Of a stretch of DNA of 64,000 bases, positions 7,132 through 46,314 are shown piece by piece (positions within the stretch are counted from its first letter, which is position 1; each line of letters opens with the position of its first letter). The stretch spans positions 34,299-98,298 of the forward strand of contig JBDRRF010000005.1 in the NCBI GenBank assembly GCA_043825875.1. The letters run 5' to 3'. The position numbers were made by a program, and so were the translations under genes. The notes beneath the pieces are model-generated. The model saw only the letters and a program-made list of their open reading frames with translations, made no database searches and was not told the origin of the DNA. This DNA comes from Pseudomonadota bacterium. GTDB lineage: Bacteria > Desulfobacterota > Desulfobacteria > Desulfobacterales > RPRI01.

Positions 7132-7136
7132 ATATA

Positions 7137-19816: not shown

Positions 19817-21418
19817 TTACTTATCCAACAAACCTGCTGATTTTAAAAAATCATTTGCCACCTTAGCCGGACTTTGTCCTTTCCCGTCTGCCGCATAATT
19901 AAGCCGCTGCATGGTAGTGTCATCAATCTTGTTATATAAAAGTAAAAGAGTCTCTTTAAGTTCGGGATATTTTTTTAATGTTTCCATTCTTACTACAGGG
20001 ACAGCATTGTATGGAGGAAAGAAGATTTTATCATCCTGTAAAGGTTTGAGTTTATATGCTTCGATTCGACCGTCTGTGGTGAATGCGCAAATTATATCAA
20101 CTTTCTTGTTATGTATGGCCTCATACATTAAAGACGGATCAAGATCACGTATGGTTTTAAATGATAGTTTGTAGGTTCTTTTTATTCCCGGATACCCGTC
20201 CGGTCTTTCTGCAAACTCGGATGTAAAGCCTGCATCAAGATTTTGCGCAACTCCTGTAAGATCCGATATCTTTTGCCAATCGTTTTTCTTTGCATCATCC
20301 GATCGGACGGTAATAGCATATGTATTGTTAAAGCCGAAAGGTTTAAGCCACATCAGATCATACTGTTTCAGATACTTATCAGATACAAACTGTAATGCAT
20401 CATCGGGATTTGATATTACCGGGGCATTGAGTACCGCAGTTAATGCCGTTCCCGTGTATTCGGCATAAAGATCTATTCCTCCGCTTACAAGCGCTCCATG
20501 ACAAATCATGGAGCCGCCTAAGTTAAAGCGACGATCTACAATAATATCCGTTTTTGCTTCAATAAGCTGTGTCATTATCTCACCTAAGATAATCTGTTCG
20601 GTATAATTTTTTGTTCCGATACGAATTATTTTATCTGCACCCGGATGAGACGATTCATTATATATGGCCGAAAAAGAAGATATGAATGTGGGCAAAACGC
20701 CTGCAAGAACAATTAAAAAAGGAATTGCAAAAACTGCTGGCCTGATAATTGCCTTAAAAGACCGTTCTTTATCTCTTTTTCTTTCAGGCTTTAATGCCCA
20801 TTCCAAACCCCCTATTGAAAAATCCACAATCAATGCCAGGATTGCAGCAGGAACAGCGCCAAGAAGAATTAGTTTTGTGTCGGAAAGCGCAAGGCCGCGG
20901 TTTATAAATTGGCCAAGACCTCCAGCTCCTATAAAAGCGGAAAGAGTGGCAATGCCTACACCAACAACCGCAGCTGTCCTGATCCCGGCTACAATAACAG
21001 GAACTGCAAGTGGAAATCGAACCAGTTTTAACTCCTGGTATGCGGTCATACCTATTCCTTTTGCAGCTTCTATCAGGTTTGGTGGTACACCATCAAGCCC
21101 TGTAAGCGTATTTCTTACAATCGGCAAAAGTGCATAAAGCGTTAAAGCAATAAGTGCAGGCGCAGCTCCTATTTTATTTAATATGGCAAGAAGAAAAACA
21201 AGCATGGCAAGACTTGGTATAGTTTGAAGTATACCTATAATGCCCATAACAGGAGTGCGAAGAAATCCATAGCGGAAAATATATGTTCCTAAAGGCACGC
21301 CGATTAAGATCGCAAAAAAAGTAGATAAGCCAGTAAGCATAAGGTGTTCGCCGGTACGTAACAACAGCTCAGGCATTCTGCCGGACAGATAAGAGTATAT
21401 AAGCCCAAGTTCTGTCAT
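19817..21418 (-). CDS. Osmoprotectant (glycine betaine/choline) ABC transporter, fused permease + substrate-binding protein
   Basis: QTIPSLA, EAAKGIGM (EAA loop), IGAGGLG; OpuAC-like GTKNYTEQ, YAEYTGT, GFNNTYA, TTDGRI, FFPPY. Confidence 0.93.
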   Translation of the reverse strand: MTELGLIYSYLSGRMPELLLRTGEHLMLTGLSTFFAILIGVPLGTYIFRYGFLRTPVMGIIGILQTIPSLAMLVFLLAILNKIGAAPALIALTLYALLPIVRNTLTGLDGVPPNLIEAAKGIGMTAYQELKLVRFPLAVPVIVAGIRTAAVVGVGIATLSAFIGAGGLGQFINRGLALSDTKLILLGAVPAAILALIVDFSIGGLEWALKPERKRDKERSFKAIIRPAVFAIPFLIVLAGVLPTFISSFSAIYNESSHPGADKIIRIGTKNYTEQIILGEIMTQLIEAKTDIIVDRRFNLGGSMICHGALVSGGIDLYAEYTGTALTAVLNAPVISNPDDALQFVSDKYLKQYDLMWLKPFGFNNTYAITVRSDDAKKNDWQKISDLTGVAQNLDAGFTSEFAERPDGYPGIKRTYKLSFKTIRDLDPSLMYEAIHNKKVDIICAFTTDGRIEAYKLKPLQDDKIFFPPYNAVPVVRMETLKKYPELKETLLLLYNKIDDTTMQRLNYAADGKGQSPAKVANDFLKSAGLLDK

Positions 21419-22417: not shown

Positions 22418-25400
22418 ATGACCGAGTTTGATACACTGCCTGATGAGATGATCCTTAATATTCATTCAATAGATAAGACGGTTCCCGAAAACCTGACAGT
22501 TACTTTAGGCGGTCGTGAAATTTTAGAACCGGCTTTTGTGTTTAAAAACGAAAAATTTATACAGAAGCTTGAGCAATTGGAAGAAATGATACGGCTGCCT
22601 TTGCCCTGCGATGCCAAGGGAGTCATGGGGTCTAAAGAAAATGATTTGGAGTCGGCTATCTATGAACAATCAGTTACCATCGGAACCGGTCTGGCCGACA
22701 TACTAGATGATATGGGGCGACAAACCCTTACAGAGATGATGAATAGCACCAAGATACCATTGCTGCGCATCGTTGTTGACGGCGATTGGGCAGACCGTGT
22801 TCTGGCTTTGCCATGGGAACTTCTTTATATAGATGGCCGCTTTCCGGTAAAAGAAGCTCGCCTGGATGTGGTTCGTGAAGTCAGCGTGGCTAATGCGCCC
22901 GGTCTTGAGCCACAGACTACGCCTTTCAGGGTGCTTGTGCATATCGCCGCCCCGGAGGCTGACGATGGGCAAAGTTCGTTAATGTATGAAGAAGAAGCTT
23001 ATCGCCTTGTTCTTTCCATGCAGCAAGTCGCAAAAGACGCCGTTGCTTTTTCCGATTTGGGCACTGCAAGGGATCTGGTTCGGGCCGTTCGGAATATCAA
23101 CCCCACCGTGGTTCATTTTACCGGACACGGTAGCCCCGGCACATTATTGTTTGAAAATGAAATCGGTGAAAACGCCGAGATCCCTATTTCATATCTTTTG
23201 ACACAGATGCGGGCTTCGGCGGTTGGAGAACAGCCTGTTTTGCCCCAGGTTTTTTATCTGGCGTCTTGTTATGGCGCCTCCGGCACAGCCAACTTCACGC
23301 CGGCAGCTAAGTGCGGATATAGGCAGCTTAGCGAATTGGGCGCGGTTAAAGGGGAGGGGCCTTCCACCGCAACTACCATACAAAGACAAGGGTGCCCGGC
23401 CGTTGTGGCCTATTTTGGTCCGGTAGGGGATCAATTGTCCACCCGCGCGGAAACTATATTCTATAGTGGGTTGGCTGCGGGCAAAAAGCTTACCGAATCA
23501 GTGCGCAGCGCCCGTATAGATATGGCCGGAGTGCTTGGAGAAAAAGATAAGTATTATCGCTATCCGCTGGGCTGGGCGCAACTTGCGCTGTATCTGCGGG
23601 GTAACGATATTTCCATAAGCAAAGCAAAAACCGGGGGGAAAGCCGCCGATGATATTTACGTTCTGGAACAACAGCTTTACCGTCCTGATTCACCGGTTCA
23701 TTCTCTGGATATGCTGCATTCCGGCATAGACGGGTTTATAGGCAGGCGCAAGGATCTTGCAATGCTCGGGCAACGCCATATCAAGGGCCAGCGCTTGTTT
23801 GTGCTTTACGGTCTTGGCGGTATCGGCAAAACCGCTCTTGCTGTTAACCTGATTCCAAAACTGGGAATAGATCAAGACAAAATAGTAATACTTGATGCGG
23901 CCCGTGCGGATAAAGCTGCAAATCCTTTTCAAGACCTCTGGGAGCAAATGACGGATCAGCTTCAGGATGCTTTTCCTGATATCCTGGCAAGCATACTGGA
24001 AACTTATAAACAAAAACAAGATCCTGAAATATTGCTTGGCGCAATGATTGCCGCAGTTAAAGACCCCTGGCTCGTTTATCTGGACAATGCCGAATCGTTG
24101 CAGGTAAAAGTAAATTCCGAAAACGGCGATCTTGGCGCATGGGCATCCCAGGGTATTTCTCAATGGTGGCAAATAGTCGCTGCCGGTGCGTTTCATGGCG
24201 GTTCGCTCACGCTAATGGCCACAACCCGCTACTTGTGGGAAGGGATTGAAAGAAAAGACAGTTGGCAGCCAGGCGTATTGCGACCATCGGATATCGCACG
24301 TATGATGCGCTGGTTTCCATATCTGCGGCAAATTTCCCATGAGAACAAAATGAAAATCATCGAATGGCTAAACGGCCATGCACGGGCATTGATCTATCTT
24401 GAAGGCTTGTTTAAAGAAATTCTCGATTCGCAAACACCGGAAGATGATATTTCAGCAGAAAGATGGCAGGCGGCAATTGAACAAGCCCTGCCCCAAACGG
24501 ATGAAAAACTGGAAAACGAAGACCTTATGCTTTCTCACATTTTGAAAAGACTCGACACTCCGGCCAAAGATCAGTTGCGAGTCCTCACCGCCTTAAGATC
24601 TCCCGCTCCTTTGGATGCGCTAAATAGTCTCGGAGACCAAACCGGCAGGCTTGAAAGTTTGGGCCTTATCACAAAGTTTTCCGGAAAATTTTACGGAATG
24701 CATGCTAGCGTGAGCCGCTTTGTTGAATTGCTTTGCGGCCCGGCAGGCCCCGAAGATCATTTGCGCATCGGGCTGTGGTACGATGATGCTTACAAAGCTG
24801 AAAAACGTCTGGTTTTTGTTGAAGAAGCTGTTTATCATCTGGTAACGGCAGAAAAGGCTGATTTGGCAGCCACCCCGGCTGCCGATTTGGCAAGCCATTA
24901 CCTCGCAACTCTTCGTTATGCCGAATCCGGGCAGGTGATAGATTCCGTAATAGCCCTTTCCCCGTCCGCCGATTTAACGGAAAATCTTCTTGCAATAAGA
25001 GGCTATCTCCATAACGCTCTTGGACGATACGAATTTGCCGCCGCCGATTTTCAGGAAATGATTGAATCCGCCCGTAAACGTGAGACAGAAGGCATTGCTG
25101 AGGCTCAAGGGCTTCACGGACTTGCCAATGCCCTTGTTGAATTGGGCCGATATGACGAGGCCGTTGAGGCTTTTAATAAATCACTTGGTATCACAAAGCA
25201 GATTTATGGAACAGAGGCACATCCTGATTATGCCACATCTATTCATGGTCTTGCCAATGCTCTTGTTCGTTTAGGCCGATATGAAGAGGCTGTCGAGGCT
25301 TTTAATCAATCATTGAGTATCAAAAAGAGGATCTATGGATCAGTGACGCACCCTGATTATGCCGCTTCGCTTTCAGGTCTTGCCAACGCTCTTAGTAGCT

Positions 25401-26437
25401 TAGGCCGATATGAAGAAGCCGTTGAGGCCTATAATAAATCACTCAATATCAAAAAGGAGGCCTTCGGCAGTGACGAACACCCCGAATCTCTTCCCACCCG
25501 GACAAATCTGGGAATGGCATTGGCAAAGATGGGACGAATTGATCAGGCGAGCAGAGAAATGGACCGAGCCTTATCTATTGCCAGAACTATGGGGCATCCT
25601 TTTCATACCGGCAACATCCTGGTTTTGTATGCACAGGTTGAAGCAGCCCGCAACACCCAAAAAGCCATAGATATGGCAGTAGAAGCTGAAGCTTTGTTAA
25701 TGCAGCTATTCGAAACTTCGCACCCCACGCTGCAAGAAGTGAGGGCATTGATCGCCGGGTTGAAGGGCGGGCCTGAGCCTGAATCTGATCCTGCCACAGG
25801 GCAAAAAAAACAAAGGGCAAAAGTTACTCCGGATATGCTCAAAGACTGGGCTCATGAGCTGCTACATGGTGTTCCATCTGTTTCCAGGGTTGTGTTTGTC
25901 CATCTGGCTCAGCGTATTGCATTGTTGATTTCCACTCAGGGCATCCTCACTCAATTGGCTGTGCGGATGGGTAAACCCGGATTAGAACTGGAAGATCCCA
26001 CTGCGCTTGAGATGCCGGAAGATATGCCACCCGAACAGATCCAGGAATTAAAGTCCAGGCTTGCCTACATTAAGGCATTGATGAAAACGATGGTTGAGGA
26101 CATTAATGACAGGCTACGAGATTACCCCGAACAAAACGGGCGGATTGTATTAAATGAAGACCTGTCATGTACTGTTCCCGATGGGCTTTCAACCGTGCTG
26201 TTAGACGAAGCCGCAGCGATTATTTTAGTCGGTTCAGACGAATTGCTGCGGGCGGAACTTGACCTTGTTTTGAAGGGATTATCCATCCTGTTAAAAGATG
26301 AAGATGATCCGGCCGCAATTGGACTGCCGACCACTTTGCTCCGGAGATTGCCGGATCAGCGGGAAAAAATCGTTAACACGCTGAAGCCATTTTGCTCTGA
26401 AAGACAGAAGAAGCTCTTATTGGAAACGAAAGGATAA
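22418..26437 (+). CDS. CHAT (caspase-like) protease - STAND/NB-ARC NTPase - TPR protein with unknown C-terminal domain
   Basis: LPWELL, HFTGHG (His) and LASC (Cys) dyad; FIGR, GLGGIGKT, LVYLDNAE, LNGHARAL; tandem TPR units. Confidence 0.9.
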   Translation: MTEFDTLPDEMILNIHSIDKTVPENLTVTLGGREILEPAFVFKNEKFIQKLEQLEEMIRLPLPCDAKGVMGSKENDLESAIYEQSVTIGTGLADILDDMGRQTLTEMMNSTKIPLLRIVVDGDWADRVLALPWELLYIDGRFPVKEARLDVVREVSVANAPGLEPQTTPFRVLVHIAAPEADDGQSSLMYEEEAYRLVLSMQQVAKDAVAFSDLGTARDLVRAVRNINPTVVHFTGHGSPGTLLFENEIGENAEIPISYLLTQMRASAVGEQPVLPQVFYLASCYGASGTANFTPAAKCGYRQLSELGAVKGEGPSTATTIQRQGCPAVVAYFGPVGDQLSTRAETIFYSGLAAGKKLTESVRSARIDMAGVLGEKDKYYRYPLGWAQLALYLRGNDISISKAKTGGKAADDIYVLEQQLYRPDSPVHSLDMLHSGIDGFIGRRKDLAMLGQRHIKGQRLFVLYGLGGIGKTALAVNLIPKLGIDQDKIVILDAARADKAANPFQDLWEQMTDQLQDAFPDILASILETYKQKQDPEILLGAMIAAVKDPWLVYLDNAESLQVKVNSENGDLGAWASQGISQWWQIVAAGAFHGGSLTLMATTRYLWEGIERKDSWQPGVLRPSDIARMMRWFPYLRQISHENKMKIIEWLNGHARALIYLEGLFKEILDSQTPEDDISAERWQAAIEQALPQTDEKLENEDLMLSHILKRLDTPAKDQLRVLTALRSPAPLDALNSLGDQTGRLESLGLITKFSGKFYGMHASVSRFVELLCGPAGPEDHLRIGLWYDDAYKAEKRLVFVEEAVYHLVTAEKADLAATPAADLASHYLATLRYAESGQVIDSVIALSPSADLTENLLAIRGYLHNALGRYEFAAADFQEMIESARKRETEGIAEAQGLHGLANALVELGRYDEAVEAFNKSLGITKQIYGTEAHPDYATSIHGLANALVRLGRYEEAVEAFNQSLSIKKRIYGSVTHPDYAASLSGLANALSSLGRYEEAVEAYNKSLNIKKEAFGSDEHPESLPTRTNLGMALAKMGRIDQASREMDRALSIARTMGHPFHTGNILVLYAQVEAARNTQKAIDMAVEAEALLMQLFETSHPTLQEVRALIAGLKGGPEPESDPATGQKKQRAKVTPDMLKDWAHELLHGVPSVSRVVFVHLAQRIALLISTQGILTQLAVRMGKPGLELEDPTALEMPEDMPPEQIQELKSRLAYIKALMKTMVEDINDRLRDYPEQNGRIVLNEDLSCTVPDGLSTVLLDEAAAIILVGSDELLRAELDLVLKGLSILLKDEDDPAAIGLPTTLLRRLPDQREKIVNTLKPFCSERQKKLLLETKG
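25115..25501 (+). repeat. Three tandem 129-bp (43-aa) TPR-coding repeats
   Basis: Units start at 25115, 25244, 25373 (xGLANALxxLGRYxEAVEAxNxSL...HP). Confidence 0.9.
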
Positions 26438-26696
26438 AGGGTAGTAATAGATACATAACAGTTTAGTCTATAATTTAACCTAACTGGCTCAGTGGATTTA
26501 TTTATCCTCCCGCTCAGTTCTGCCTTCAGATAAACCTCATTTCTGTATTTGACAATAGGTAAGACCTAAAGAAAATGCCCTAAACAAATTGCCGATAAAC
26601 TCTATGCAAGTTCACTGTCGGCCGATTATTCATATTTGAAGATAAAAAATCTGACAATATAAAACTTCATATCTTTTTCCAGGTCTATAAGGTCTG

Positions 26697-26765
26697 AAAA
26701 AGGTAGCGGCCAGCCGGAATTAATCCGGTTGGCCGCTAAGGAAAAGAAAAGATTTTTGGGGTTGT
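26697..26765 (-). ncRNA. Candidate sigma54-dependent small RNA, copy 1 (divergent from nifH)
   Basis: Sigma54 promoter immediately upstream; CU-rich segment; 15-bp hairpin followed by CCUUUUU; homologous copy at 45892-45965. Confidence 0.65.
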
Positions 26766-26774
26766 TTATAATTA

Positions 26775-26792
26775 TTGCAAATAACTTGCCAA
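26775..26792 (-). promoter_or_regulatory. Sigma54 (-24/-12) promoter
   Basis: Minus strand TTGGCAAGTTATTTGCAA, GG-N10-GC. Confidence 0.8.
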
Positions 26793-26919
26793 TCCGGAAT
26801 TTTATTTAATATTAATAGTAGATAATATATAAAACAATAAAACAAGATAGTTATAGCCAGCTATTTTTTTGTTTCTCATTAATAAATATTTTACAGATTT
26901 CATGCCATTTGCATTAAAC

Positions 26920-26951
26920 TCAAAATAATGACACCAGTGTCATTATTTTGA
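26920..26951. promoter_or_regulatory. Perfect 15-bp-arm palindrome, candidate enhancer-binding-protein site
   Basis: TCAAAATAATGACAC-CA-GTGTCATTATTTTGA between two divergent sigma54 promoters. Confidence 0.6.
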
Positions 26952-27195
26952 TACTTTATTTATACTTCTTGGGTCTTCTCCTGCTTCTTTTCCCTGATTT
27001 TCTTCCGCCCTTAAATTTAAGTGGGCAAAAAGTTTTAAACAATAACAAAATTACATAATTGTAGTAGTAAAGCTTATATATTGCAATTATGTATCATAAA
27101 TATATCTTCATAAGTAACTGTACTTATCAGCAACAAGCCAATAATATATATTAATATAAAGCATTTAAAACCATTTAATCGGATTTAATATCTTG

Positions 27196-27211
27196 TGGCA
27201 TAACTCTTGTA
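27196..27211 (+). promoter_or_regulatory. Probable sigma54 promoter of the nif operon (variant -12)
   Basis: TGGCATAACTCTTGTA: GG-N10-GT, ~55 bp upstream of the nifH ATG. Confidence 0.6.
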
Positions 27212-27225
27212 ATAAGTAATATTAA

Positions 27226-28089
<864 letters not shown>

Positions 28090-28107
28090 AGAAGAAAGGA
28101 ATTAATC

Positions 28108-28464
28108 ATGATTATGATCAGATCAATTGTCAGGCCGGAAAAAGTTGACGCAGTACTAGCTGCATTGATGGAAGCAGGCTTTCCCGGTGTAACAAAATTA
28201 TCGGTTGTCGGACGCGGGAAGCAACGTGGGATTAAAATCGGCGAAATTACCTACGATGAGATCCCTAAAGAAATGCTGCTAACAATCGTCAAGGACAAGG
28301 AGAAGGATTTTGTCATTAAAACAATTTTAAAAGCGGCACGCACCGGAGATAAGGGTGCTTATGGCGATGGAAAGATATTCATTGTGCCTGTAGAGGAAGT
28401 TTATACCATCAGTTCAGGTATAAAAGAGGATGCCGGAGGTAATATTGAAGAGGTGAAAATATGA
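28108..28464 (+). CDS. nifI1: P-II family nitrogenase regulator NifI1
   Basis: IVRPEK, GRGKQRG, YDEIPKE, ARTGxxGAYGDGKIF; between nifH and nifD. Confidence 0.92.
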   Translation: MIMIRSIVRPEKVDAVLAALMEAGFPGVTKLSVVGRGKQRGIKIGEITYDEIPKEMLLTIVKDKEKDFVIKTILKAARTGDKGAYGDGKIFIVPVEEVYTISSGIKEDAGGNIEEVKI

Positions 28465-28841
28465 AGGAAATATTGGCCATTATCCGAATGAACATGATGA
28501 ACCGGACAAAAACCGCCCTTTCCGAAGCGGGTATTTCCTCCATAACTGCGGGAAGTGTCCTTGGGCGGGGTAAAGGCCTTATAGATCTTCAACTGCTCAA
28601 AGGTGCCGAAAAAGGTTATGAAGAGGCCGTTTCACTTTTAGGGCAGAGCAACAGGCTTATACCAAAACGTATCTTAATTATCACTATTCCTAATAAACTT
28701 GTGAAAAAAACCGTAAAAACAATAATGAAAGTAAACAAAACCGGAAAATCCGGAGATGGTATTATTTGTGTAATGCCATGCCATGATGCTGTTAGAGTAC
28801 GCACGGGTGAAAGTGGTGATGATGTTTTAGATGATGTTTGA
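28461..28841 (+). CDS. nifI2: P-II family nitrogenase regulator NifI2
   Basis: MKEILAIIRMN, GRGKG, LIPKR, NKTGKSGDG, VRVRTGESG. Confidence 0.92.
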   Translation: MKEILAIIRMNMMNRTKTALSEAGISSITAGSVLGRGKGLIDLQLLKGAEKGYEEAVSLLGQSNRLIPKRILIITIPNKLVKKTVKTIMKVNKTGKSGDGIICVMPCHDAVRVRTGESGDDVLDDV

Positions 28842-28897
28842 GATGACGTTTGATTTGAAGCGCCAACAATAATTGTTCAAAAGAGGAGATGCTTAAA

Positions 28898-30553
28898 ATG
28901 GCGTTACCTGAAGAAAATATTAAAATTGATATTGATGGATATACTCCTGAAGAAATCAAAGAAGAAATGTTGCTGCAGTATCCACCTAAAGTTGCCCGTA
29001 AGAGGGCAAAGCAGATCATAGTCAATAAGTTTGGAGAAGACGGTGAAGTGGGCGATATCAGTCCAAACGTTCGGACAGTTCCGGGATTGATTGGTCAGCG
29101 GGGATGTTGTTATGCCGGTTGCAAGGGTGTTGTTTTAGGTCCGACAAGAGATATTATAAACATTACCCATGGGCCGATAGGATGCGGGTTCTATAGTTGG
29201 TTAACCCGCAGGAACCAGACTGATGCCAGTACTACTCCGGATAATCATAATTTTATGACTTACTGTTTTTCTACCGATATGCAGGATGAACAGATCATAT
29301 TCGGGGGAGAAAAAAAACTCAGGCAGGCCATACAGGAAGCATATGACAATTTCCATCCAAAAGCGATTGCTGTTTTTGCTACCTGTCCCGTGGGTTTGAT
29401 TGGAGACGATATTCATACTGTTTGTCGTGAAATGAAGGAAAAACTTGGAATAAATGTCTTTGGTTTCAGTTGTGAGGGATACAAGGGAGTGAGCCAGTCA
29501 GCAGGCCATCACATTGCAAATAACGGTATCTTTACCCATGTGGTAGGTACTGATGATACTGAGCGGGATGGCAAATATAAAATTAATCTACTGGGAGAAT
29601 ATAATATCGGTGGAGATGCATTTGAAATAGAGCGGATCTTTGAAAAATGCGGCATTACTTTAATTTCTACTTTCAGCGGAAATTCCAGCATAGATAAATT
29701 CGCCAATGCTCATGTTGCTGATCTGAACCTTATAATGTGTCACAGATCCATAAATTATGTTGCTGAAATGATGGAAACAAAATTTGGGCTGCCCTGGATA
29801 AAGATCAACTTTATCGGAGCAAATGCCACGGCAAAATCATTAAGAAAAATTGCTCAGTACTTTGGCGATGAAGAACTGATTGCAAAGGTTGAAGAAGTTA
29901 TTGCCGAAGAAATGCCCGCGGTAAAAAAGGCAATAGAAGAAGTCAGACCCCGAACTGAAGGCAAGAGGGCGATGCTTTTTGTAGGAGGTTCCAGGGCTCA
30001 TCACTACCAGGAGCTTTTTGGGGAACTTGGCATGAAAACTCTATCGGCAGGTTATGAATTTGGCCATAGAGATGATTATGAAGGCCGGAGAGTACTTCCC
30101 GACATTAAAGTTGATGCCGACAGCAGAAACATTGAAGAACTTGATGTCAAGCCTGATCCTGATAAATTTAATCCCAGAAAAAGTGAATCCGAGATTGCAA
30201 AGCTTGAAGAGTCCGGTTTGAAAATGTCTGACTACGATGGCATGATGCCGGATATGGATAGTGGAGCTATGATTATAGACGATATAAGTCAGCGCGAATC
30301 AGACCTGCTTATAGAGTCTTTCAAACCTGATATTTACTGTGCCGGGATTAAGGAGAAGTATACGGTACAGAAAAATGGAATTCCAATGAAACAGCTCCAC
30401 AGTTATGACTACGGAGGACCATACGCCGGATTTAGTGGTTCTATAAACTTTTACAGAGAAATTGACCGTATGGTTAACAGTAAAATCTGGAAGTATCTGA
30501 AGGCTCCCTGGCAGGTTAACCCGGAACTGGCAGCGGCCTATGCATCCGATTAA
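28898..30553 (+). CDS. nifD: Nitrogenase MoFe protein alpha chain (group II, with internal insertion)
   Basis: RGCCYAG, HGPIGC, TCP, MCHRS (FeMoco Cys), GYEFGH, LHSY (FeMoco His); ATG 28898 is well spaced from GAGGAG. Confidence 0.98.
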   Translation: MALPEENIKIDIDGYTPEEIKEEMLLQYPPKVARKRAKQIIVNKFGEDGEVGDISPNVRTVPGLIGQRGCCYAGCKGVVLGPTRDIINITHGPIGCGFYSWLTRRNQTDASTTPDNHNFMTYCFSTDMQDEQIIFGGEKKLRQAIQEAYDNFHPKAIAVFATCPVGLIGDDIHTVCREMKEKLGINVFGFSCEGYKGVSQSAGHHIANNGIFTHVVGTDDTERDGKYKINLLGEYNIGGDAFEIERIFEKCGITLISTFSGNSSIDKFANAHVADLNLIMCHRSINYVAEMMETKFGLPWIKINFIGANATAKSLRKIAQYFGDEELIAKVEEVIAEEMPAVKKAIEEVRPRTEGKRAMLFVGGSRAHHYQELFGELGMKTLSAGYEFGHRDDYEGRRVLPDIKVDADSRNIEELDVKPDPDKFNPRKSESEIAKLEESGLKMSDYDGMMPDMDSGAMIIDDISQRESDLLIESFKPDIYCAGIKEKYTVQKNGIPMKQLHSYDYGGPYAGFSGSINFYREIDRMVNSKIWKYLKAPWQVNPELAAAYASD

Positions 30554-30692
30554 GTAACTATTCGGGTTCACAGTTCAAAGTTAAAGTGCGATCAAAATCG
30601 GATGTTTTGAAAGTGGCTCGCTTGTTTTGATTATGCTCAACAATTGGCCTGAAACCATTTTTAGAATTAAATATAATATGAGGACATAAGAT

Positions 30693-32072
30693 ATGCTTCT
30701 AAGACATACAACTGATGAAATAAAAGAACGAAAGGCGCTGTCAGTGAATCCGGCAAAGACATGTCAGCCTATAGGAGCCATGTATGCTTCTCTCGGGATT
30801 CACGGATGTTTACCACACAGTCATGGTTCTCAGGGATGCTATGCTTATCACCGCAGTACGCTTACGCGTCATTACAAGGAACCGGTTATAGCCGCAACCA
30901 GCGCATTTACAGAGGGAGCATCCGTTTTCGGTGGTCAGGCAAACCTGCTCCAGTCCATTGATAACATTTTTACGGTTTATAATCCTGCTGTGATTGCCGT
31001 TCATACAACATGTCTTTCCGAAACTATTGGAGATGACTTGCCCCAGATAATTAATAAGGCAAGATCCGATGGTAAAATTCCTGAGGGAAAATATGTTATT
31101 CACACAAACACCCCGAGTTATGTTGGATCGCATGTTACAGGATTTTCGAATATGACCCGTGCAATGGTAGATTATTTTGCCGAATACACAGGATCAAAAA
31201 ATAAAATTATTAATCTTATACCCGGATTTGTAGAACCGGCAGATATGGAAGAGATGAAAAGACTTGCAGCCGAAATGGGGATAAAGACAATAATGTTTCC
31301 CGACACTTCCAGGGTGTTAAACGGCCCCATGACAGGAAAGTATAAGATGTTTCCTGATGGGGGGGTAACAATTGAAGAGCTGAAGATGACAGGAAGCAGC
31401 ATAGGAACTATAGCACTGGGGCCACATGCCTCAGGAGCGGCGGCAAAAGCTTTGGATGTTAAATGTAAAGTCAGGTGTGAAATCCTTGATTTGCCGATCG
31501 GCTTACATGCAACTGATGCATTCATAGATCAGCTCAGATGCATGGCTAATGTCAATGTGCCGGATTCCATTAACTTTGAAAGAGGTCAGATGTTAGATAT
31601 TGTTGCTGATATGCATCAGTATTTTTACGGCAAAAGAGTTGGCCTTGTGGGAGATCCCGACCAGATTCTGGCGCTTGCAAAATTTCTGGTATCCATTGAT
31701 ATGCATCCTGTTTACATGGTTACAGGCAGTCCGGCAGGAAAAAAGTTTGAAAAACAATTAAGGGAGATAACAGCAGAAGTTCCGGGTGAAGTAAAAATTA
31801 AAGTGCCTGGAGATATGTTTCTCTTTCACCAGTGGATTAAAAATGAGCCGGTAGATCTGCTCATTGGAAACACTTACGTAAAGTATATTGCACGGGATGA
31901 AGACATACCTTTTATAAGACATGGTTTCCCAATCCTGGATCGGATAGGGCATAGTTACTTTCCTACAGTGGGTTACAAAGGAGGCATCCGACTGCTGGAA
32001 AAAATATTAAACGCACTATTGGATAGAAAAGATAGAGATGCTACCGATATCGATTTTGAACTTGTAATGTAA
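30693..32072 (+). CDS. nifK: Nitrogenase MoFe protein beta chain
   Basis: NPAKTCQP, HGSQGC, HTTCLSETIGDD, TPSYVGSH, GFPILDR. Confidence 0.98.
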   Translation: MLLRHTTDEIKERKALSVNPAKTCQPIGAMYASLGIHGCLPHSHGSQGCYAYHRSTLTRHYKEPVIAATSAFTEGASVFGGQANLLQSIDNIFTVYNPAVIAVHTTCLSETIGDDLPQIINKARSDGKIPEGKYVIHTNTPSYVGSHVTGFSNMTRAMVDYFAEYTGSKNKIINLIPGFVEPADMEEMKRLAAEMGIKTIMFPDTSRVLNGPMTGKYKMFPDGGVTIEELKMTGSSIGTIALGPHASGAAAKALDVKCKVRCEILDLPIGLHATDAFIDQLRCMANVNVPDSINFERGQMLDIVADMHQYFYGKRVGLVGDPDQILALAKFLVSIDMHPVYMVTGSPAGKKFEKQLREITAEVPGEVKIKVPGDMFLFHQWIKNEPVDLLIGNTYVKYIARDEDIPFIRHGFPILDRIGHSYFPTVGYKGGIRLLEKILNALLDRKDRDATDIDFELVM

Positions 32073-32109
32073 AATCTGAATCTGAAAGTCTATATAAGGA
32101 GTTATTGAA

Positions 32110-32412
32110 ATGGAAAAGCCGGATTATCATATATTTGTGTGTTGCAGTTTTAGAGGTATTGAAGCCAAAGGCAAATGCCTGCGTAAAGAGTCTCCCAATC
32201 TTATTCCCTATCTACAGGAGGAATTGGTGGACCGGGGTTTAAATGCGATGGTATCCAGTTCGGGTTGTCTGAACCGATGTGATGAAGGTCCGGCTATGGT
32301 CATATATCCTCAAGGAATATGGTACGGAAATATTAACGGGGAAGCTGAAGTTGATGAAATACTGGATGCCCTTGAAGAGGGAGTAGCAGCGGAAAAATAC
32401 CTGATTACATAA
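32110..32412 (+). CDS. Thioredoxin-like [2Fe-2S] ferredoxin (nif-associated)
   Basis: HIFVC, GKC, SGCLNRCDEGPAMVIYPQGIWYG. Confidence 0.9.
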   Translation: MEKPDYHIFVCCSFRGIEAKGKCLRKESPNLIPYLQEELVDRGLNAMVSSSGCLNRCDEGPAMVIYPQGIWYGNINGEAEVDEILDALEEGVAAEKYLIT

Positions 32413-32440
32413 TGGTATTATGATGTCATGAGGTGAAAAA

Positions 32441-33811
32441 ATGGAAACATCGACAGCTGTAATTTTTGAAGAAAGAGAAAATCAGATCCACCGGAAAGGT
32501 GAATCGCCATTTAATATCGATTGTAACCGCGATAGCCTGGCCGGAGCGATAAGCCAGAGAGCATGTGTTTTTTGCGGTTCCAGAGTGGTATTGTACCCGA
32601 TTGCAGATGCTCTGCATCTGGTGCATGGCCCTATAGGTTGCGCAGTCTATACCTGGGATATCAGGGGTGCGCTGTCATCAGGCCCCGAACTCCACCGGCT
32701 TAGTTTTAGTACTGACCTGCAGGAAAAAGATGTTATTTTCGGTGGTGAAAAAAAACTTTACAAAGCATTAAGTGAGCTTATCGATCTTCATAGCCCTAAG
32801 GCAGCATTTGTTTATTCCACTTGTATAGTCGGAATTATCGGAGATGATCTGGAAGCCGTCTGCCGCAAAGTCAGCGCAGAAAAGAATATTCCGGTTATTC
32901 CGGTTCAGTCTGAAGGGCTTAAAGGCAATAAGCGTGAAGGATATAACGCCGCGTGCAGGGCTCTTTTCAGGCTGGTGGGAACAGGCGAAACTGATAATAT
33001 GTCTCCATACAGCCTTAATATTCTTGGCGACTTTAATCTTGCCGGCGAAATATGGTTAATCAGAGATTATTTCAAACGTATGGGAGTTGAGGTTGTCGCA
33101 AATATCACCGGAGACGGGCGGATAGCAGATATAAAAAGAGCACATGTAGCAAAACTAAATGTTGTTCAGTGTTCCGGCTCTACCATGGATCTGGCAAATA
33201 TGATGGATGAAACTTACGGTATCCCCCATATTAGAGTCTCCTATTTCGGTGTGGAGGATATGGCCCAGGCTCTTTATGATGTTGCAAATTTTTTCGGTGA
33301 TAAAGAAATGATAGAAAAAACCAAAGAACTGGTTAAAGACGAACTGAAAGTTCTTTATCCTGAATTGAAAAAATATAAAAAAGCCCTAGATGGAAAAAAA
33401 GCAGCCATATACGTCGGCGGGTCATTCAAGGCATTTTCTCTGGTGAAAGCCTTAAGGCATCTTGGAATGAAAGTAGTAATGGTAGGATCTCAGACCGGTA
33501 CCAAAGAAGACTACGCCGAGCTTGAACAGATAACAGATCCCGGAACCATAATAGTCGATGATACCAATCCTTTAGAGCTTTCGCAGTTTATCAAGGAAAA
33601 AGGAGTGGATCTGTTTATCGGAGGAGTAAAGGAGCGCCCGATTGCCTATAAGCTTGGTGTGGGATTTTGTGATCATAACCATGAAAGAAAAATCGGGCTA
33701 GAAGGTTTTGACGGCATGCTCAATTTTGCCAAAGAAGTTTATAACACTGTAATGAGCCCGGTATGGCGTTTTGTCCCCCGCAATACTACAGGAGATGTGA
33801 AAAATGTCTGA
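32441..33811 (+). CDS. nifE: FeMo-cofactor scaffold protein NifE
   Basis: QRACVFCG, HGPIGC, YSTC, VQCSGS, DHNHER. Confidence 0.96.
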   Translation: METSTAVIFEERENQIHRKGESPFNIDCNRDSLAGAISQRACVFCGSRVVLYPIADALHLVHGPIGCAVYTWDIRGALSSGPELHRLSFSTDLQEKDVIFGGEKKLYKALSELIDLHSPKAAFVYSTCIVGIIGDDLEAVCRKVSAEKNIPVIPVQSEGLKGNKREGYNAACRALFRLVGTGETDNMSPYSLNILGDFNLAGEIWLIRDYFKRMGVEVVANITGDGRIADIKRAHVAKLNVVQCSGSTMDLANMMDETYGIPHIRVSYFGVEDMAQALYDVANFFGDKEMIEKTKELVKDELKVLYPELKKYKKALDGKKAAIYVGGSFKAFSLVKALRHLGMKVVMVGSQTGTKEDYAELEQITDPGTIIVDDTNPLELSQFIKEKGVDLFIGGVKERPIAYKLGVGFCDHNHERKIGLEGFDGMLNFAKEVYNTVMSPVWRFVPRNTTGDVKNV

Positions 33812-35162
33812 TAATTATACATCAACAACAAACGCATGCAAACTATGCAAACCCATCGGGGCGTGTCTTGCTTTCAAGGGTGTTGAAGGGGCTGTGCCGT
33901 TTCTGCATGGATCACAGGGATGCGCAACATATATGCGCCGCTATATTATAAGCCATTTCAGGGAACCGATGGATATAGCATCTTCTTCGCTGGGAGAAAA
34001 AAATGCTATATTCGGAGGAGGCGCAAATCTGAAGCAGGGGATCAAAAATGTAACTACAAAGTATGGGGCAAAGATGATCGGTATCGCCACGACCTGCTTA
34101 ACCGAAACAATCGGTGATGATGTTCCATCCATTATTAAACAGTTTCGCGAAGAAGAAAAGGCTCTTTTTGAATCCGATAATTCTCCACTTCTGGTAAATG
34201 TTTCCACACCCAGCTATGGCGGCACGCATATGGAAGGATTCCATGATGCCGTAAAAGCGCTTGTTGATCAGATCGCAACAGAATATGGGAAAGATGAATC
34301 CATAAACCTGCTGCCGGGTTTTGTTTCTCCTGCCGACATACGTTATTTAAAAGAAGTCTTATCTGATTTTAATATAAACGGAGTAGTACTGCCTGATATC
34401 TCGGAATCTTTGGATGGCCCGGCTCTGCTTGATTATCAGAAGATATCCGAAGGCGGGACTCCGCTATCCAAAATAAGAGATATGGGAAAGGCCCGCGCAA
34501 CTATTGAATTCGGGCGTACAATTTTTGGAAATTTAACCGCCGGAAAACTCCTGGATTCACGTTTCGGCGTTAAAAACTATTCTCTCGGGATGCCGATCGG
34601 GCTTAGGGAAAGTGATGAATTCTTTTCGGTTCTGGAAGAAATTTCAGGATGCAAATCACCTGAAAAGCATGTTCTTGAACGCGGCAGACTAATCGATTCT
34701 TTTGTGGATGCTCATAAATATATCTTTGGCTGCAAGGCTGTTGTCTATGGGGAAGAAGATCTGGTAGTTGGTCTTACCTCATTTCTTGCAGAGATGGGAG
34801 TGCAGCCGGTTCTGTGCGCCTCGGGTGGAAAAAGCAAAAAACTGGAAAAAGAAATTACGGCGGTCACAAAAGGGCTTGTTGATCTGCCGATAGTTCGTGA
34901 CGGCGTTGATTTTTATGATATCGGAGAAGAGATTGAAGCATTGAAACCCGATCTTCTTATCGGACACAGCAAGGGATACAGTCTGTCTAAAAAGCATGGG
35001 ATTCCCTTGATGCGGGTAGGATTTCCTATTCATGATCGTATAGGCGGTCAGCGTGTCCTTCACCTGGGTTATCGCGGGGCGCAGACCCTGCTTGATGAAC
35101 TTGTTAATTTAGTAATCGAAAAGAAGCAGAACGATTCACCTGTTGGATACTCTTATATGTGA
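33804..35162 (+). CDS. nifN: FeMo-cofactor scaffold protein NifN
   Basis: NACKLCKPIGA, HGSQGCATYMRR, TTCLTETIGDD, GFPIHDR. Confidence 0.95.
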   Translation: MSDNYTSTTNACKLCKPIGACLAFKGVEGAVPFLHGSQGCATYMRRYIISHFREPMDIASSSLGEKNAIFGGGANLKQGIKNVTTKYGAKMIGIATTCLTETIGDDVPSIIKQFREEEKALFESDNSPLLVNVSTPSYGGTHMEGFHDAVKALVDQIATEYGKDESINLLPGFVSPADIRYLKEVLSDFNINGVVLPDISESLDGPALLDYQKISEGGTPLSKIRDMGKARATIEFGRTIFGNLTAGKLLDSRFGVKNYSLGMPIGLRESDEFFSVLEEISGCKSPEKHVLERGRLIDSFVDAHKYIFGCKAVVYGEEDLVVGLTSFLAEMGVQPVLCASGGKSKKLEKEITAVTKGLVDLPIVRDGVDFYDIGEEIEALKPDLLIGHSKGYSLSKKHGIPLMRVGFPIHDRIGGQRVLHLGYRGAQTLLDELVNLVIEKKQNDSPVGYSYM

Positions 35163-35187
35163 GTGATTTACGATAAAGGAGCAGCTC

Positions 35188-36441
35188 ATGAACCTGGACG
35201 CACACCCCTGTTTTAATAAAGAAGTAAAACATAAATTCGGACGGGTCCACCTTCCGGTGGCTCCAAAGTGTAATATCAAGTGCAATTACTGCAACCGGAA
35301 ATACGATTGTCTGAACGAAAGCAGGCCCGGAGTTACCAGTGCTGTTCTTTCACCAATACAGGCTGTTGATTATCTGACAAAGGTTCTTGCAAAAGAACCT
35401 CGTATAACAGTGGCCGGTATAGCAGGACCGGGCGATCCTTTCGCCAATCCGGATGAAACAATGGAAACATTGCGTCTTATTAACAAACAGTTTCCGAATA
35501 TTATACTTTGTCTTGCCACAAATGGTATGGGTCTTTTACCATATATTGATGAGCTCAGCGGGCTCAACCTGACACATATCACTATTACGGTCAATGCCCT
35601 TGATCCGGCTATAGGCGGAAAAATTTATTCCTGGGCAAGGGATGGAAAAGTACTGTATAGAAAAGAAAATGCGGCAGCAAATCTTATTGAACGCCAGCTT
35701 GAGTCAATTAAGAAGTTAAATGAAAAAAATATAACAGTTAAGATTAACTCAATAATAGTTCCGGGCATAAATGATGAACACATCATAGAAATTGCAAAGG
35801 AAATGGCGCATTTAAAAGTTGATATTATGAATGCTATTGCCATGTTTCCAAGCCCTGGTTCTGAATTTGAAAAAATGGAAGAACCAAGTAACGAAATTGT
35901 TGCAAGGATCAGAGATGATGCCGGGAAATACGTTTCACAGATGAAGCATTGTTCCCGCTGCCGTGCTGATGCTGTAGGGCTTTTGGGTGAAGATCGTATT
36001 AATGAGTTTCAGGGGTGCCTTTCCGAATGCAGCTCAATTAAAGAAAAGGGTAATGAAAACAAACCTTATGTAGCTGTGGCTTCTATGGAAGGGACTCTTG
36101 TCAACATGCACCTGGGAGAAGCAGATCGTTTTATGATTTACGGGAAAAGTATCGATGGTTACAAGCTTGTGGATATTAGGTATGCGCCGAAACCTGGAGG
36201 AGGAGACGACAGATGGAATCAATTGAAGGATACTATAAAGGACTGTCGCGCCATCCTGACCAGTGCTCTTGGAGACAGGCCAAAACAGATTCTTGAATTT
36301 GCCGGAATACTGCCTGTTGAAATGGAGGGCTTCGTCGACGAAGGGCTGGAGGCCGTTTTTGAAGGCGGTGATCTTGGCAGGTTTAAAAGCCGTAAATTCA
36401 ACCCTTCCGGTTGCAGTGGGACCGGGCTTGGATGCGGATAA
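35188..36441 (+). CDS. nifB: FeMo-cofactor biosynthesis radical SAM protein NifB with C-terminal NifX-like domain
   Basis: HPCF, CNIKCNYC, NESRPG, AGPGDP, HCSRCRADA, VAVAS...VNMHLGEA. Confidence 0.97.
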   Translation: MNLDAHPCFNKEVKHKFGRVHLPVAPKCNIKCNYCNRKYDCLNESRPGVTSAVLSPIQAVDYLTKVLAKEPRITVAGIAGPGDPFANPDETMETLRLINKQFPNIILCLATNGMGLLPYIDELSGLNLTHITITVNALDPAIGGKIYSWARDGKVLYRKENAAANLIERQLESIKKLNEKNITVKINSIIVPGINDEHIIEIAKEMAHLKVDIMNAIAMFPSPGSEFEKMEEPSNEIVARIRDDAGKYVSQMKHCSRCRADAVGLLGEDRINEFQGCLSECSSIKEKGNENKPYVAVASMEGTLVNMHLGEADRFMIYGKSIDGYKLVDIRYAPKPGGGDDRWNQLKDTIKDCRAILTSALGDRPKQILEFAGILPVEMEGFVDEGLEAVFEGGDLGRFKSRKFNPSGCSGTGLGCG

Positions 36442-36576
36442 TCTATATATTGTATAGCTGATTGCAACAAGATCTATATGACAAGAATTGGAGAAGTACC
36501 CGCAGCAAAATTGAGGGAACAGGGAATCGAACCTGTTATCTTCGATGGAGAAATTAAAGAAATCCCCCACCAATAA
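36442..36576 (+). pseudogene. C-terminal half of a NifB/NifX-family small protein, in frame after the nifB stop
   Basis: SIYCIADCNKIYMTRIGEVPAAKLREQGIEPVIFDGEIKEIPHQ*, matches the DCxx...xIGxxPxxxLxxxGI pattern of NifX-like domains. Confidence 0.65.
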
Positions 36577-36608
36577 CAATTTTCTCCTCTTTGTGTTATT
36601 GGCTTAAC

Positions 36609-36644
36609 TCGTATGGATCACCAAAGATTTTGTGATCCATACGA
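36609..36644. terminator. Strong hairpin at the end of the nif operon (candidate terminator or processing site)
   Basis: TCGTATGGATCAC-N10-GTGATCCATACGA, perfect 13-bp arms; no clear U-tract. Confidence 0.45.
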
Positions 36645-36665
36645 AGATTCAAGGATTTTAGCTAA

Positions 36666-37022
36666 ATGCCAAGAAATTATAAAGAATTAAAAGTTTGGCA
36701 AAATTCTTATCAATTATCTCAGGATATCGATAGGGCAACAGACACATTCCCCGAACATGAAGGGTTTATCTTAGCAACTCAAATGAAAAAGGCCGCCGTA
36801 TCCATTCCGAAATATATTGCAAGAGGATACCGGAAAAAAACAACACCTGAATATATAAAATTATTATATGTTGCTTATCGTTCAACATATGAATTGGAAA
36901 TGCATATAATACTGTCTGGGGATCTTGGTTATATTAACAAGGAGCAGTTATCAGTGCTTCATGGTAATATCTCTGAGCTTGAAAAAATGTTAAGATTCAT
37001 GATAAAAACATTAGAAAAATAA
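36666..37022 (+). CDS. Four-helix bundle protein (23S rRNA-IVP family), diverged
   Basis: YKELKVWQxSYQL...FPxxExFxLxxQMKKAAVSIP...DLGYI. Confidence 0.85.
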   Translation: MPRNYKELKVWQNSYQLSQDIDRATDTFPEHEGFILATQMKKAAVSIPKYIARGYRKKTTPEYIKLLYVAYRSTYELEMHIILSGDLGYINKEQLSVLHGNISELEKMLRFMIKTLEK

Positions 37023-37093
37023 CAGTGAATTCATGAGAAATACAATTAAATTCCCCTTTCTCACGAATAATTGAAAGAAGGAAAAAAAGCATT

Positions 37094-37134
37094 ACGCAGA
37101 GATCGTCCAAAATGGGGCGTTTTGAAACTGGCTC
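37094..37134. repeat. Right-end fragment of the MITE-like repeat at 47701-47881
   Basis: AGATCGTCCAAAATGGGGCGTTTTGAAACTGGCTC vs AGATCGGCTAAAATGGAGCGTTTTGAAACTGGCTC. Confidence 0.8.
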
Positions 37135-37147
37135 GGAGGATTTATTA

Positions 37148-37615
37148 TTGGGTTTATCATCCCTTATTATTCGTGATGCAAAGCAGGAAGATATCAATAA
37201 GCTCTTGGAGCTTTTAGAACTTTTGTTTTCAATCGAAAAAGATTTTAAATTTGATATTAAACGCCAAAGCCGCGGTCTTGAGATGATGCTTGATGGCTGT
37301 GGCAAACACCGCTGCGTCAAAGTAGCTGATATAGATGGCTATGTTGTTGGGATGGCGACTGCCCAGGCTCTTATCTCCACAGCAGAAGGTGGTGTATCTG
37401 TTGTAGTGGAAGACATGGTTGTGAGTCCGGACTGGCAGGGCAGGGGGGTTGGAAAAAAATTGCTTGAAGATATCACAAAATGGGCAAAAAGCCGAAATGC
37501 GGTCAGACTTTCGCTTCTTGCCGATAAAGACAACATTAGCGCCATAAATTTTTATAATCATATCGGATGGAATAAAACCAATCTTATTTGCCTGCATAAA
37601 AAATCCAGCAGATAG
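37148..37615 (+). CDS. GNAT family N-acetyltransferase (nif-adjacent)
   Basis: LFSIEKDF, ISTAEGG, VEDMVV, QGRGVG acetyl-CoA motif, LLADKDN..A..FY; TTG start after GGAGGA. Confidence 0.9.
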   Translation: MGLSSLIIRDAKQEDINKLLELLELLFSIEKDFKFDIKRQSRGLEMMLDGCGKHRCVKVADIDGYVVGMATAQALISTAEGGVSVVVEDMVVSPDWQGRGVGKKLLEDITKWAKSRNAVRLSLLADKDNISAINFYNHIGWNKTNLICLHKKSSR

Positions 37616-37877: not shown

Positions 37878-37893
37878 TTGGCACGATTTCTGC
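37878..37893 (+). promoter_or_regulatory. Sigma54 promoter of the diguanylate cyclase gene
   Basis: TTGGCACGATTTCTGC, GG-N10-GC; upstream GTCA-N6-TGAC box at 37685-37698. Confidence 0.75.
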
Positions 37894-45715: not shown

Positions 45716-45891
45716 GATATTGTGCATATATAAAATGGTTAGAATAATATCTGCCATTATTTTGACACATCCGAAATTTTGACACATGTGCAAATAAATA
45801 ATCAGGATATAGTTTGATTTCGGCCAAGAGTATATAATAATAAAAAAAAATATAACTGCATGGATTAATATAATATGCAAATAAATAAGAT

Positions 45892-45965
45892 AAAAAGGAT
45901 AGCGGCCAGCCGGAATTAATCCGGTTGGCCGCTAAGGAGAAAAGAAGAATTATTTTGGAGCTGAC
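45892..45965 (-). ncRNA. Candidate sigma54-dependent small RNA, copy 2
   Basis: 39 nt identical to copy 1 (45900-45938 vs 26704-26742); CU-rich segment with CUCCUU; hairpin then UCCUUUUU. Confidence 0.65.
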
Positions 45966-45973
45966 ATTAATAA

Positions 45974-45991
45974 TTGCAAATAATTTGCCAA
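45974..45991 (-). promoter_or_regulatory. Sigma54 (-24/-12) promoter
   Basis: Minus strand TTGGCAAATTATTTGCAA, GG-N10-GC. Confidence 0.8.
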
Positions 45992-46314
45992 TTTAGTCTT
46001 TTTTGCCGTAAATAATTAAAAAAGTTAATTAGGCCTATATATTAGATACTTATAATTAAATATTCCTTTAATTTATTGTTATTTATTTTAAATAAATTTT
46101 ATGGTGTCTGTGGTAAGTTCAATATTTTGAACCGGTATTTTTAAGTATTGATCTAATATTATGAATTTAAAATGATTATTTGAATTCGTTATTTTGAACA
46201 TGGGTATGAATATTATGCATAGTTCTTGGTTCTTTTCCCGGATTTTTCATGCAACTGTATTTAACTTTCCCTTTTTGACAAGAAAGACAGGGAGTGAGAC
46301 AGCCAGAATGAATC

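Follow-up and report, generated by a model that had tools for sequence, protein, structure and literature searches.

Introduction

The small RNAs (sRNAs) to which the locus described here can best be compared fall into several groups. The redundant Qrr1-5 RNAs of Vibrio are driven by LuxO together with sigma-54. GlmY/GlmZ (GlrR and sigma-54) and CrcZ/CrcY (CbrB and sigma-54) act by protein sequestration or mimicry, and NfiS of Pseudomonas stutzeri is an RpoN-dependent sRNA that pairs with nifK mRNA. In enterobacteria, porins are repressed by sRNAs that answer to sigma-E (MicA/RybB) or to EnvZ-OmpR (OmrA/OmrB, MicF/MicC). To our knowledge, the sulfate-reducing Desulfobacterota have hardly been explored for post-transcriptional control.

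Dependence of the Qrr sRNAs on LuxO/RpoN has been reported (10.1101/2021.07.01.450815). In Desulfovibrio vulgaris Hildenborough, sigma-54-dependent ncRNAs have been predicted beside the response-regulator genes DVU0653, DVU0679, DVU1419 and DVU2359; the parts of these reports drawn on here give their function as unknown and propose no target (PMC3333781, PMC4641369).

Here we describe a putative sRNA gene, copy 1, which lies divergent from nifH in a genome of the order Desulfobacterales (G000; a 4.77-Mb assembly of 39% G+C in 118 contigs). Unless a contig is named, coordinates refer to the window, that is, the whole stretch of 64,000 nt that was analysed (C5:34299-98298). We propose, with moderate confidence, that copy 1 encodes a stand-alone, trans-acting and sigma-54-driven sRNA of ~70 nt, that it belongs to an order-wide family repressing outer-membrane beta-barrel mRNAs, and that it has been rewired upstream.

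Results

A predicted sRNA gene divergent from nifH

A first-pass annotation of this DNA had pointed to a minus-strand sigma-54 promoter followed by a CU tract, a hairpin and a U-run, without an ORF, and both sequence and fold bear out this layout. On the minus strand, TTGGCAAGTTATTTGCAA holds the promoter core TGGC-N7-TTGC (26776-26791), and the elements follow one another in the order box, gap of ~10 nt, AACAACCCCAAAAAUCUUUUCUUUUCCU, hairpin and CCUUUUUCA:

26776..26791, minus strand: sigma-54 (-24/-12) promoter core TGGCAAGTTATTTGCA of sRNA copy 1, from pattern search and reading
26695..26767, minus strand: predicted sRNA copy 1, ~70 nt, its 5' end placed by the promoter and its 3' end by the U-run
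26739..26766, minus strand: unpaired CU-rich 5' region (presumed seed), 28 nt, unpaired in the MFE and centroid structures
26704..26738, minus strand: terminator hairpin, 15 pair positions with one A/C mismatch in copy 1, from the fold
26697..26701, minus strand: U-run after the copy 1 hairpin, from sequence and fold

The 72-nt stretch 26695-26766, of which the 35-nt hairpin occupies U29-A63 (window 26704-26738), folds at -27.2 kcal/mol, compared with -10.4 +/- 2.4 for shuffled sequences (z = -7.0; 0 of 200 equally stable). Neither ATG nor GTG nor TTG occurs in it and it thus contains no ORF. A covariance model, R1 (76 positions, 15 pairs), built from an alignment (A2) of ten sequences from five genomes, matches copy 1 with 86 bits (E 6.7e-14; G000:C5:60993-61065), a score that is not independent, because copy 1 is among the ten. 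The layout by which the family is defined joins an unpaired, CU-rich 5' region to a GC-rich hairpin of 14-15 bp and a U-run, and copy 1 shows it. Taken alone, the loose sigma-54 box pattern is no rarity in the window (three seen versus 1.62 expected; 26 of 100 shuffles reach three), and what gives the box its significance is that it keeps a fixed place ahead of the conserved RNA in 99 of the 110 loci related to this one. No RNA dataset was found to cover 26400-36000. When metatranscriptome contigs (three runs of the same study) were compared with 26400-46300, they gave spurious scraps of 18-35 nt, none of them on the sRNA genes, which say nothing either way. Judged by its sequence, the flagged element is a real, stand-alone sRNA gene, from which an RNA of ~70 nt would be transcribed on the minus strand, starting at the sigma-54 promoter and ending at the intrinsic terminator.

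Copy 1 is adjoined by the gene for a 1339-aa CHAT-domain/AAA_16/TPR protein (22418-26437, +). On its other side, across a divergent region of 474 nt, lies nifH, the first gene of a nif cluster (nifH-I1-I2-D-K-x-E-N-B, 27265-36438), and a gene of the 23S rRNA intervening-sequence protein family (36666-37019, +) stands right behind nifB. Farther off, the window holds a cobalamin (cbi) cluster at 314-8468 and, at 52598-60930 (+), genes for a bacterial alpha-2-macroglobulin (2050 aa) and then a PBP1c-type transglycosylase/transpeptidase.

Four promoter-linked copies in one genome

The same layout had been noted to recur 19 kb away with 39 identical nt, as part of a multicopy family, and it does so at 45891-45990, with a box of its own:

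45975..45990, minus strand: sigma-54 promoter core of sRNA copy 2, from pattern search
45891..45966, minus strand: predicted sRNA copy 2 (R1 99.8 bits, G000:C5:80189-80264; repeat D7)
46117..46132, strand not assigned: enhancer site GTTCAATATTTTGAAC upstream of copy 2, starting at -142, from motif search

Copies 1 and 2 form repeat D7 (59 nt, 90% identity, 19,196 nt apart), within which the identical run, counted on alignment A1, is 39 nt long. Searching the whole genome by BLAST yields three copies (E 1.6e-52, 1.3e-23 and 3.7e-18), the remaining matches being short with E > 0.1, except for a palindromic reverse match on copy 3 (E 0.003); R1 adds a fourth (C74:30517-30594, 77.3 bits). All four copies sit behind a sigma-54 box of the form TTGGCAA-N5-TTGCW, ~10 nt before the RNA. 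With only four copies of the hairpin, all of them promoter-linked, a REP-type repeat or plain terminator is ruled out.

The presumed seeds differ between copies. None of the four contains the CAUCUG block, which is retained in the small genomes of two congeners (G009, G010). Copy 1 has UUCCUU only, the weakest anti-Shine-Dalgarno (anti-SD) sequence of the four, and does not carry the core seed that joins CAU (anti-start codon) to CUCCUCCUUAA.

Several related sequences occur elsewhere in this genome. A third exact sigma-54 box, TGGCAAGATAATTGCA, lies at 45699-45714 (-), ~175 nt downstream of copy 2 and 78 nt before a 94-aa ORF (45337-45621, -) that has no Pfam or NCBIfam match; in the congener G016 (L033), a sigma-54 box likewise stands downstream of the sRNA. 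At 20010-20028, 19 nt are identical to the copy 3 seed, in the same sense on the minus strand and far beyond chance, within an OpuAC-domain transporter ORF (19820-21418, -) and with no promoter or hairpin beside them. Outside the window, C9:14089-39374 (-) carries ten sigma-54 boxes, mostly TGGCAGACTATTTGCT and all on one strand, each preceding a small gene; by eye, CsbD-like and lipoprotein-like genes are among these, and the array may be a sigma-54 stress island.

An order-wide family with a covarying hairpin

BLAST detected one to three copies in four of the 16 other genomes of the genus and no copy in 24 genomes that represent other families of the order. With R1, matches appear in 63 of 151 sampled Desulfobacterales genomes (G000 included), mostly as a single copy; the corresponding counts are 51 of 113 good-quality genomes and 44 of 109 genera. 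Outside the order (a phylum-wide sample of 151; 146 other genomes), the model returned two weak matches only, neither with a sigma-54 box. An exact scan of public genomes with a 22-nt core gave at least 120 stretches, and the carriers among the matches listed include Desulfosarcina (with D. widdelii, D. alkanivorans and D. cetonica), Desulfatitalea, Desulfonema, Desulfatibacillum, Desulfococcaceae and Desulfobacterales MAGs. Eighty of these at least 120 core loci were retrieved and comprise 70 sigma-54 copies, eight members of a second sRNA class and two antisense matches. The second class (L071, L095, L100, L104, L113, L114, L129 and L145, near position 1500) has the same 24-nt seed behind a TTGACA-type promoter, with a different 5' end and a different terminator; it co-occurs with a sigma-54 copy in the same MAGs, and in five loci an AcrB-type efflux gene stands immediately upstream of it.

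A strict TGGC-N7-TTGC box is found 5-24 nt (mostly 9-11) ahead of the model match in 29 of 30 order-level loci, the thirtieth having TTGA in the box, and in 99 of all 110 loci. In a 95-row alignment fitted to R1, which includes three reverse-strand palindrome matches and leans to the model by construction, all 15 stem pairs change on both sides (195 cells). Stem cells are paired in 92.6% of cases versus 11-44% when the partners are slid, and none of 500 shuffles reaches any of these measures. The alignment also settles a caveat of the first-pass annotation, namely that one position of the copy 1 stem is an A/C mismatch on the minus strand. The mismatch is indeed present, internal to the hairpin stem and common to copies 1 and 2. 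In most family members, however, the position is paired (A-U or G-C), and many of the stem pairs are of the G-U or U-G kind when read on the promoter strand, at positions where the opposite strand would have A/C mismatches.

The suggestion that no described family matches the element is in keeping with Rfam 15, which gave no match at the gathering threshold in the window; for ten loci searched at E <= 1, the single hit was AaHKsRNA41, at chance level (25 bits versus 97 required, E 0.058). Qrr (RF00378) matched neither the window at its gathering threshold nor the ten loci at E <= 1. A full-text literature search, with subscription journals outside its coverage, returned no description of a Desulfobacterales sigma-54 sRNA family. 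The family apparently is widespread and new, and of a known kind.

Enhancer sites and a candidate regulator

Upstream of the boxes, a palindromic motif, GTTCAA-N4-TTGAAC (<=2 mismatches, within 300 nt of the box), occurs at least once in 92 of 97 loci and at least twice in 70, compared with one control region, and the sites cluster at about -146, -224 and -298. Genome G000 contains four exact and two one-mismatch sites. Five of these six, including three of the four exact ones, precede sRNA copies 2, 3 and 4, and the regulon thus looks dedicated to sRNA genes.

Copy 4 lies directly behind genes for a histidine kinase (HisKA, HATPase_c) and a response regulator (REC/sigma-54 AAA+/HTH_8), with two GGTTCAAGAAATTGAAC sites between the response regulator gene and the sRNA. 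The regulator is AtoC/NtrC-like, with no NCBIfam equivalog threshold reached. In our reading, this NtrC-type regulator would bind two or three GTTCAA-N4-TTGAAC sites and activate sigma-54 RNA polymerase. The ancestral locus, represented here by copy 4, is a succession of histidine kinase, NtrC-type response regulator, enhancer sites, sigma-54 promoter and sRNA. Compared by architecture only, and as far as the cited parts of the reports on them go, the predicted ncRNAs of D. vulgaris, from the same phylum, show the same order of regulator gene, binding sites, sigma-54 promoter and ncRNA directly downstream (PMC3333781, PMC4641369). Adjacency to a regulator gene of this kind is seen at copy 4 and in 16 of 110 loci and is absent at copy 1; the other loci have varied neighbours.

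The upstream region of copy 1

Copies 2, 3 and 4 carry the enhancer motif, and copy 1 does not: neither copy 1 nor its ortholog in the congener G008 (L038) has an enhancer site within two mismatches in the 400 nt upstream. A different palindrome stands where the other copies have their proximal site:

26920..26951, strand not assigned: perfect 13+13 palindrome, candidate activator site, ~130-160 nt upstream of the copy 1 promoter

The core of this palindrome, TGACAC-N2-GTGTCA, occurs a single time in the genome, and all 32 nt are identical in L038. By eye, it retains seven of the 12 consensus positions of the enhancer motif. Since a unique palindrome now takes the place of the family enhancer, copy 1 is probably under the control of a different activator or of a modified one.

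Does this replacement tie copy 1 to nitrogen fixation? The first-pass annotation had proposed co-activation with nitrogenase from a shared enhancer region, and one might go further and regard copy 1 as a nitrogen-fixation-linked sRNA that is co-activated with nifH and acts, like NfiS, on nitrogen-related mRNAs. NfiS resembles copy 1 in its sigma-54-type promoter and in the proximity of copy 1 to nif genes. Copy 1 is divergent from nifH in both G000 and G008, it is the only copy in which a unique and conserved palindrome, located between the two genes, stands in for the family enhancer, and a degenerate sigma-54-like box, TGGCATAACTCTTGTA (27196-27211, +; GT replaces GC at -12), lies ~55 nt before the nifH start. 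Against this stands that nifH is present in five of 17 genomes of the genus and that the sRNA is divergent from it in only two of these five; in G011 and G013 the sRNA copies are on contigs other than that of nifH, although this is weak evidence given the fragmented assemblies. The family enhancer is missing upstream of exactly this copy. The palindrome, being single in the genome, is not a shared nif enhancer, and by eye it lacks the TGT-N10-ACA consensus. No enhancer-binding protein gene is found in the window, and the family, which extends through the order, has a dedicated regulator that is unrelated to nif. Finally, unlike for NfiS, there is no good complementarity to nif start regions: with start regions only considered, the 12 genes of the nif cluster are placed between ranks 240 and 3256 of 4117 for copy 1 (nifK is at 2833). 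From the limited adjacency, the lack of an enhancer-binding protein gene in the window and the poor ranks, we read the position beside nifH as recent and probably incidental, and we consider a nitrogen-linked function quite unlikely.

Alternatively, copy 1 may be a decaying or silent paralog whose activation ceased with the loss of its enhancer. It could indeed be decaying, given that it has no family enhancer, that its stem contains an A/C mismatch and that its anti-SD is weaker than those of the other three seeds, and its R1 score is the lowest of the three BLAST-found copies, yet above that of copy 4. On the other hand, the promoter core is intact, the hairpin is still very stable (z = -7), and the palindrome, with its partial match to the enhancer consensus, occupies the position of the proximal site. 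Moreover, the ortholog in G008 retains the promoter, the hairpin with compensating changes and the identical palindrome, which argues for selection on copy 1. Decay appears quite improbable. We instead favour the reading that copy 1 has kept promoter, seed and terminator and would have exchanged the family enhancer for a palindrome of its own.

Predicted pairing with outer-membrane protein mRNAs

How might the sRNA act? It had been suggested that the CU-rich tract could pair with AAGGA(G)-type ribosome-binding sites, and both duplex prediction and the ranking of start regions support complementarity to sites of the AAGGAGG type. Each of the two loci that match the 22-nt core in antisense, in the set of 80 retrieved from at least 120, falls on the start region of an outer-membrane protein (429 aa, Alginate_exp-type), whose homolog in G000 scores, below cut-off, as DESULF_POR1 (trimeric porin). 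In 16 genomes having both sRNA and porin, the best duplex begins at -12 to -20 and runs over the start codon to early codons in 15. Its z is <= -2.5 in 14 of the 16, and in 12 it beats all 60 shuffles; copy 4 of G000 shows no fit to the porin of that genome (z = -0.4), and in G129 the fit is poor (z = -1.2). The 5' motif of the sRNA varies together with the first codons of the porin, for example in G111, G029, G032 and G060. Cognate pairs average -34.2 kcal/mol versus -28.6 for non-cognate pairs, and none of 20,000 permutations is as low, a test that overstates the case because related genomes are not independent (two pairs of genomes in the set are congeners). The porin leaders contain 41 TAGGT motifs in 26 x 200 nt, as opposed to 0.08 per 200 nt elsewhere, and repeats of the UUAGGU type are complementary to the 5' motif AACCUAA of the sRNA. 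Tandem UUAGGU(U)/UCAGGU repeats, up to seven each, are seen in the leaders of L200-L226 (e.g., L201, L206, L212 and L217).

The porin cannot be a universal target, since homologs (E <= 1e-20, single query) are found in 21 of 63 sRNA-bearing genomes and in 24 of 88 genomes without the sRNA. Among the congeners, a 63-aa fragment in G008 is the only porin homolog found, with none in G009, G010, G011, G013 and G016. In G000, 4117 start regions, based on crude gene-start calls, were ranked by a combined score. Ranks 2-7 are held by three DUF1302 proteins, two TonB-dependent receptors and one Porin_5 protein, and a second Porin_5 is at rank 23; for copy 1, the DESULF_POR1/Alginate_exp-type porin is at rank 7, through three colinear helices. 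Seven of the top 25 start regions belong to four outer-membrane families (the porin's included) that total 21 genes (p ~1e-11), the families having been picked after viewing the target list. The 12-nt SD-like part alone enriches outer-membrane genes (p 4e-5), the remainder does so weakly (p 0.015), and part of the target signal is thus simply that of strong ribosome-binding sites: an anti-SD seed favours any strongly translated gene. Across the whole genome, runs of exact complement show no clear enrichment at gene starts, and target sites seeded with 9-mers are noisy. A search for Hfq (PF17209) found no match in this 99.8%-complete genome.

From these patterns of complementarity, the family probably switches off outer-membrane pore proteins. 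We envision a scenario whereby the unpaired, CU-rich 5' part of the sRNA pairs with the Shine-Dalgarno sequence, the start codon and the first codons of outer-membrane beta-barrel mRNAs, and whereby pairing at the start region would block translation. In many genera, the target would be the DESULF_POR1/Alginate_exp-type porin; in G000, the predicted targets comprise this porin together with Porin_5 and DUF1302 proteins and TonB-dependent receptors.

The RNA might instead mainly titrate a protein or the ribosome, as an anti-SD mimic or protein sponge, rather than pair with specific mRNAs. The conserved core CUCCUCCUUAA presumably resembles the 3' end of 16S rRNA, the SD part accounts for much of the target ranking, and the failure to find an Hfq gene would also fit. 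The complementarity to porin mRNA, however, reaches well past the SD, through codon 7-8, it changes along with the mRNA in the genomes named above, and cognate pairs are better than non-cognate ones. GlmY/GlmZ and CrcZ/CrcY, which act through protein, are alike in that a two-component NtrC-type regulator and sigma-54 are dedicated to sRNA genes; in contrast to them, the extended and covarying antisense pairing predicted here points to direct mRNA targeting. We regard titration as very unlikely.

A last reading, in which the element would be the leader or attenuator, driven by sigma-54, of some gene downstream, or a mere terminator or REP-like repeat, is highly improbable, for although 29 of 110 loci have an amidohydrolase gene behind the sRNA in the same orientation (median 138 nt) and, on the plus strand, the copy 1 hairpin lies 260 nt behind the 1339-aa gene, copy 1 has no same-strand downstream gene in the window, neighbours vary by lineage and are often convergent, the hairpin occurs only four times in the genome, each time behind a sigma-54 box, and its G-U pairs suit the promoter strand only, with no U-run behind it on the plus strand.

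Discussion

The analogy to Qrr that had been drawn for this locus holds for the wiring, in which a two-component NtrC-type regulator would act with sigma-54 to drive redundant sRNAs. Shared with Qrr are the NtrC-family regulator and sigma-54, the short and redundant RNAs, in which a terminator hairpin comes after an unpaired seed, and a regulon that, in G000, seems to consist almost only of sRNA genes. The differences are considerable, however: sequence and structure have no match in Rfam, the family belongs to a different phylum, no Hfq gene was found in G000, one copy (copy 1) has a different upstream site, and the predicted targets are mRNAs for outer-membrane proteins instead of quorum-sensing regulators.

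With regard to targets, the porin-repressing sRNAs of enterobacteria are a closer parallel. As with MicA/RybB, OmrA/OmrB and MicF/MicC, several mRNAs for outer-membrane beta-barrel proteins are predicted to be bound at their start regions by the 5' part of the RNA, the regulator signal would be of an envelope type, and paralogs have a common seed. The Desulfobacterales family departs from them in that sigma-54 and an enhancer-binding response regulator would take charge of transcription, in that the predicted pairing extends up to ~40 nt, from the SD through codon 7-8, in that tandem UUAGGU repeats, to which the 5' motif is complementary, occur in the porin leaders of many genera, and in its unrelated sequence, which matches no Rfam family.

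A bolder version of our proposal can be formulated. The family may constitute an undescribed, order-wide envelope circuit, in which a dedicated kinase and an NtrC-type regulator would act via sigma-54 on an sRNA that is nearly full-length antisense to the start region of the major porin and was maybe born from an inverted copy of it. Porin leaders would carry tandem decoy or binding repeats, and of the four copies in this genus, one would have been rewired beside nifH by a new palindrome and would tune outer-membrane permeability with nitrogen fixation. In its entirety, this scenario is unlikely. The more modest reading, an order-wide sRNA family repressing outer-membrane beta-barrel mRNAs, with a rewired copy 1, remains the one that we prefer.

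The family offers a defined promoter, an enhancer motif, a candidate two-component regulator and a covarying target site in porin mRNA, and each of these components is testable in cultured carrier strains. If our reading is true, these bacteria would control their outer membrane by sigma-54 instead of sigma-E or OmpR, and copy 1 would illustrate how, in nature, an sRNA gene can have its enhancer replaced after duplication.
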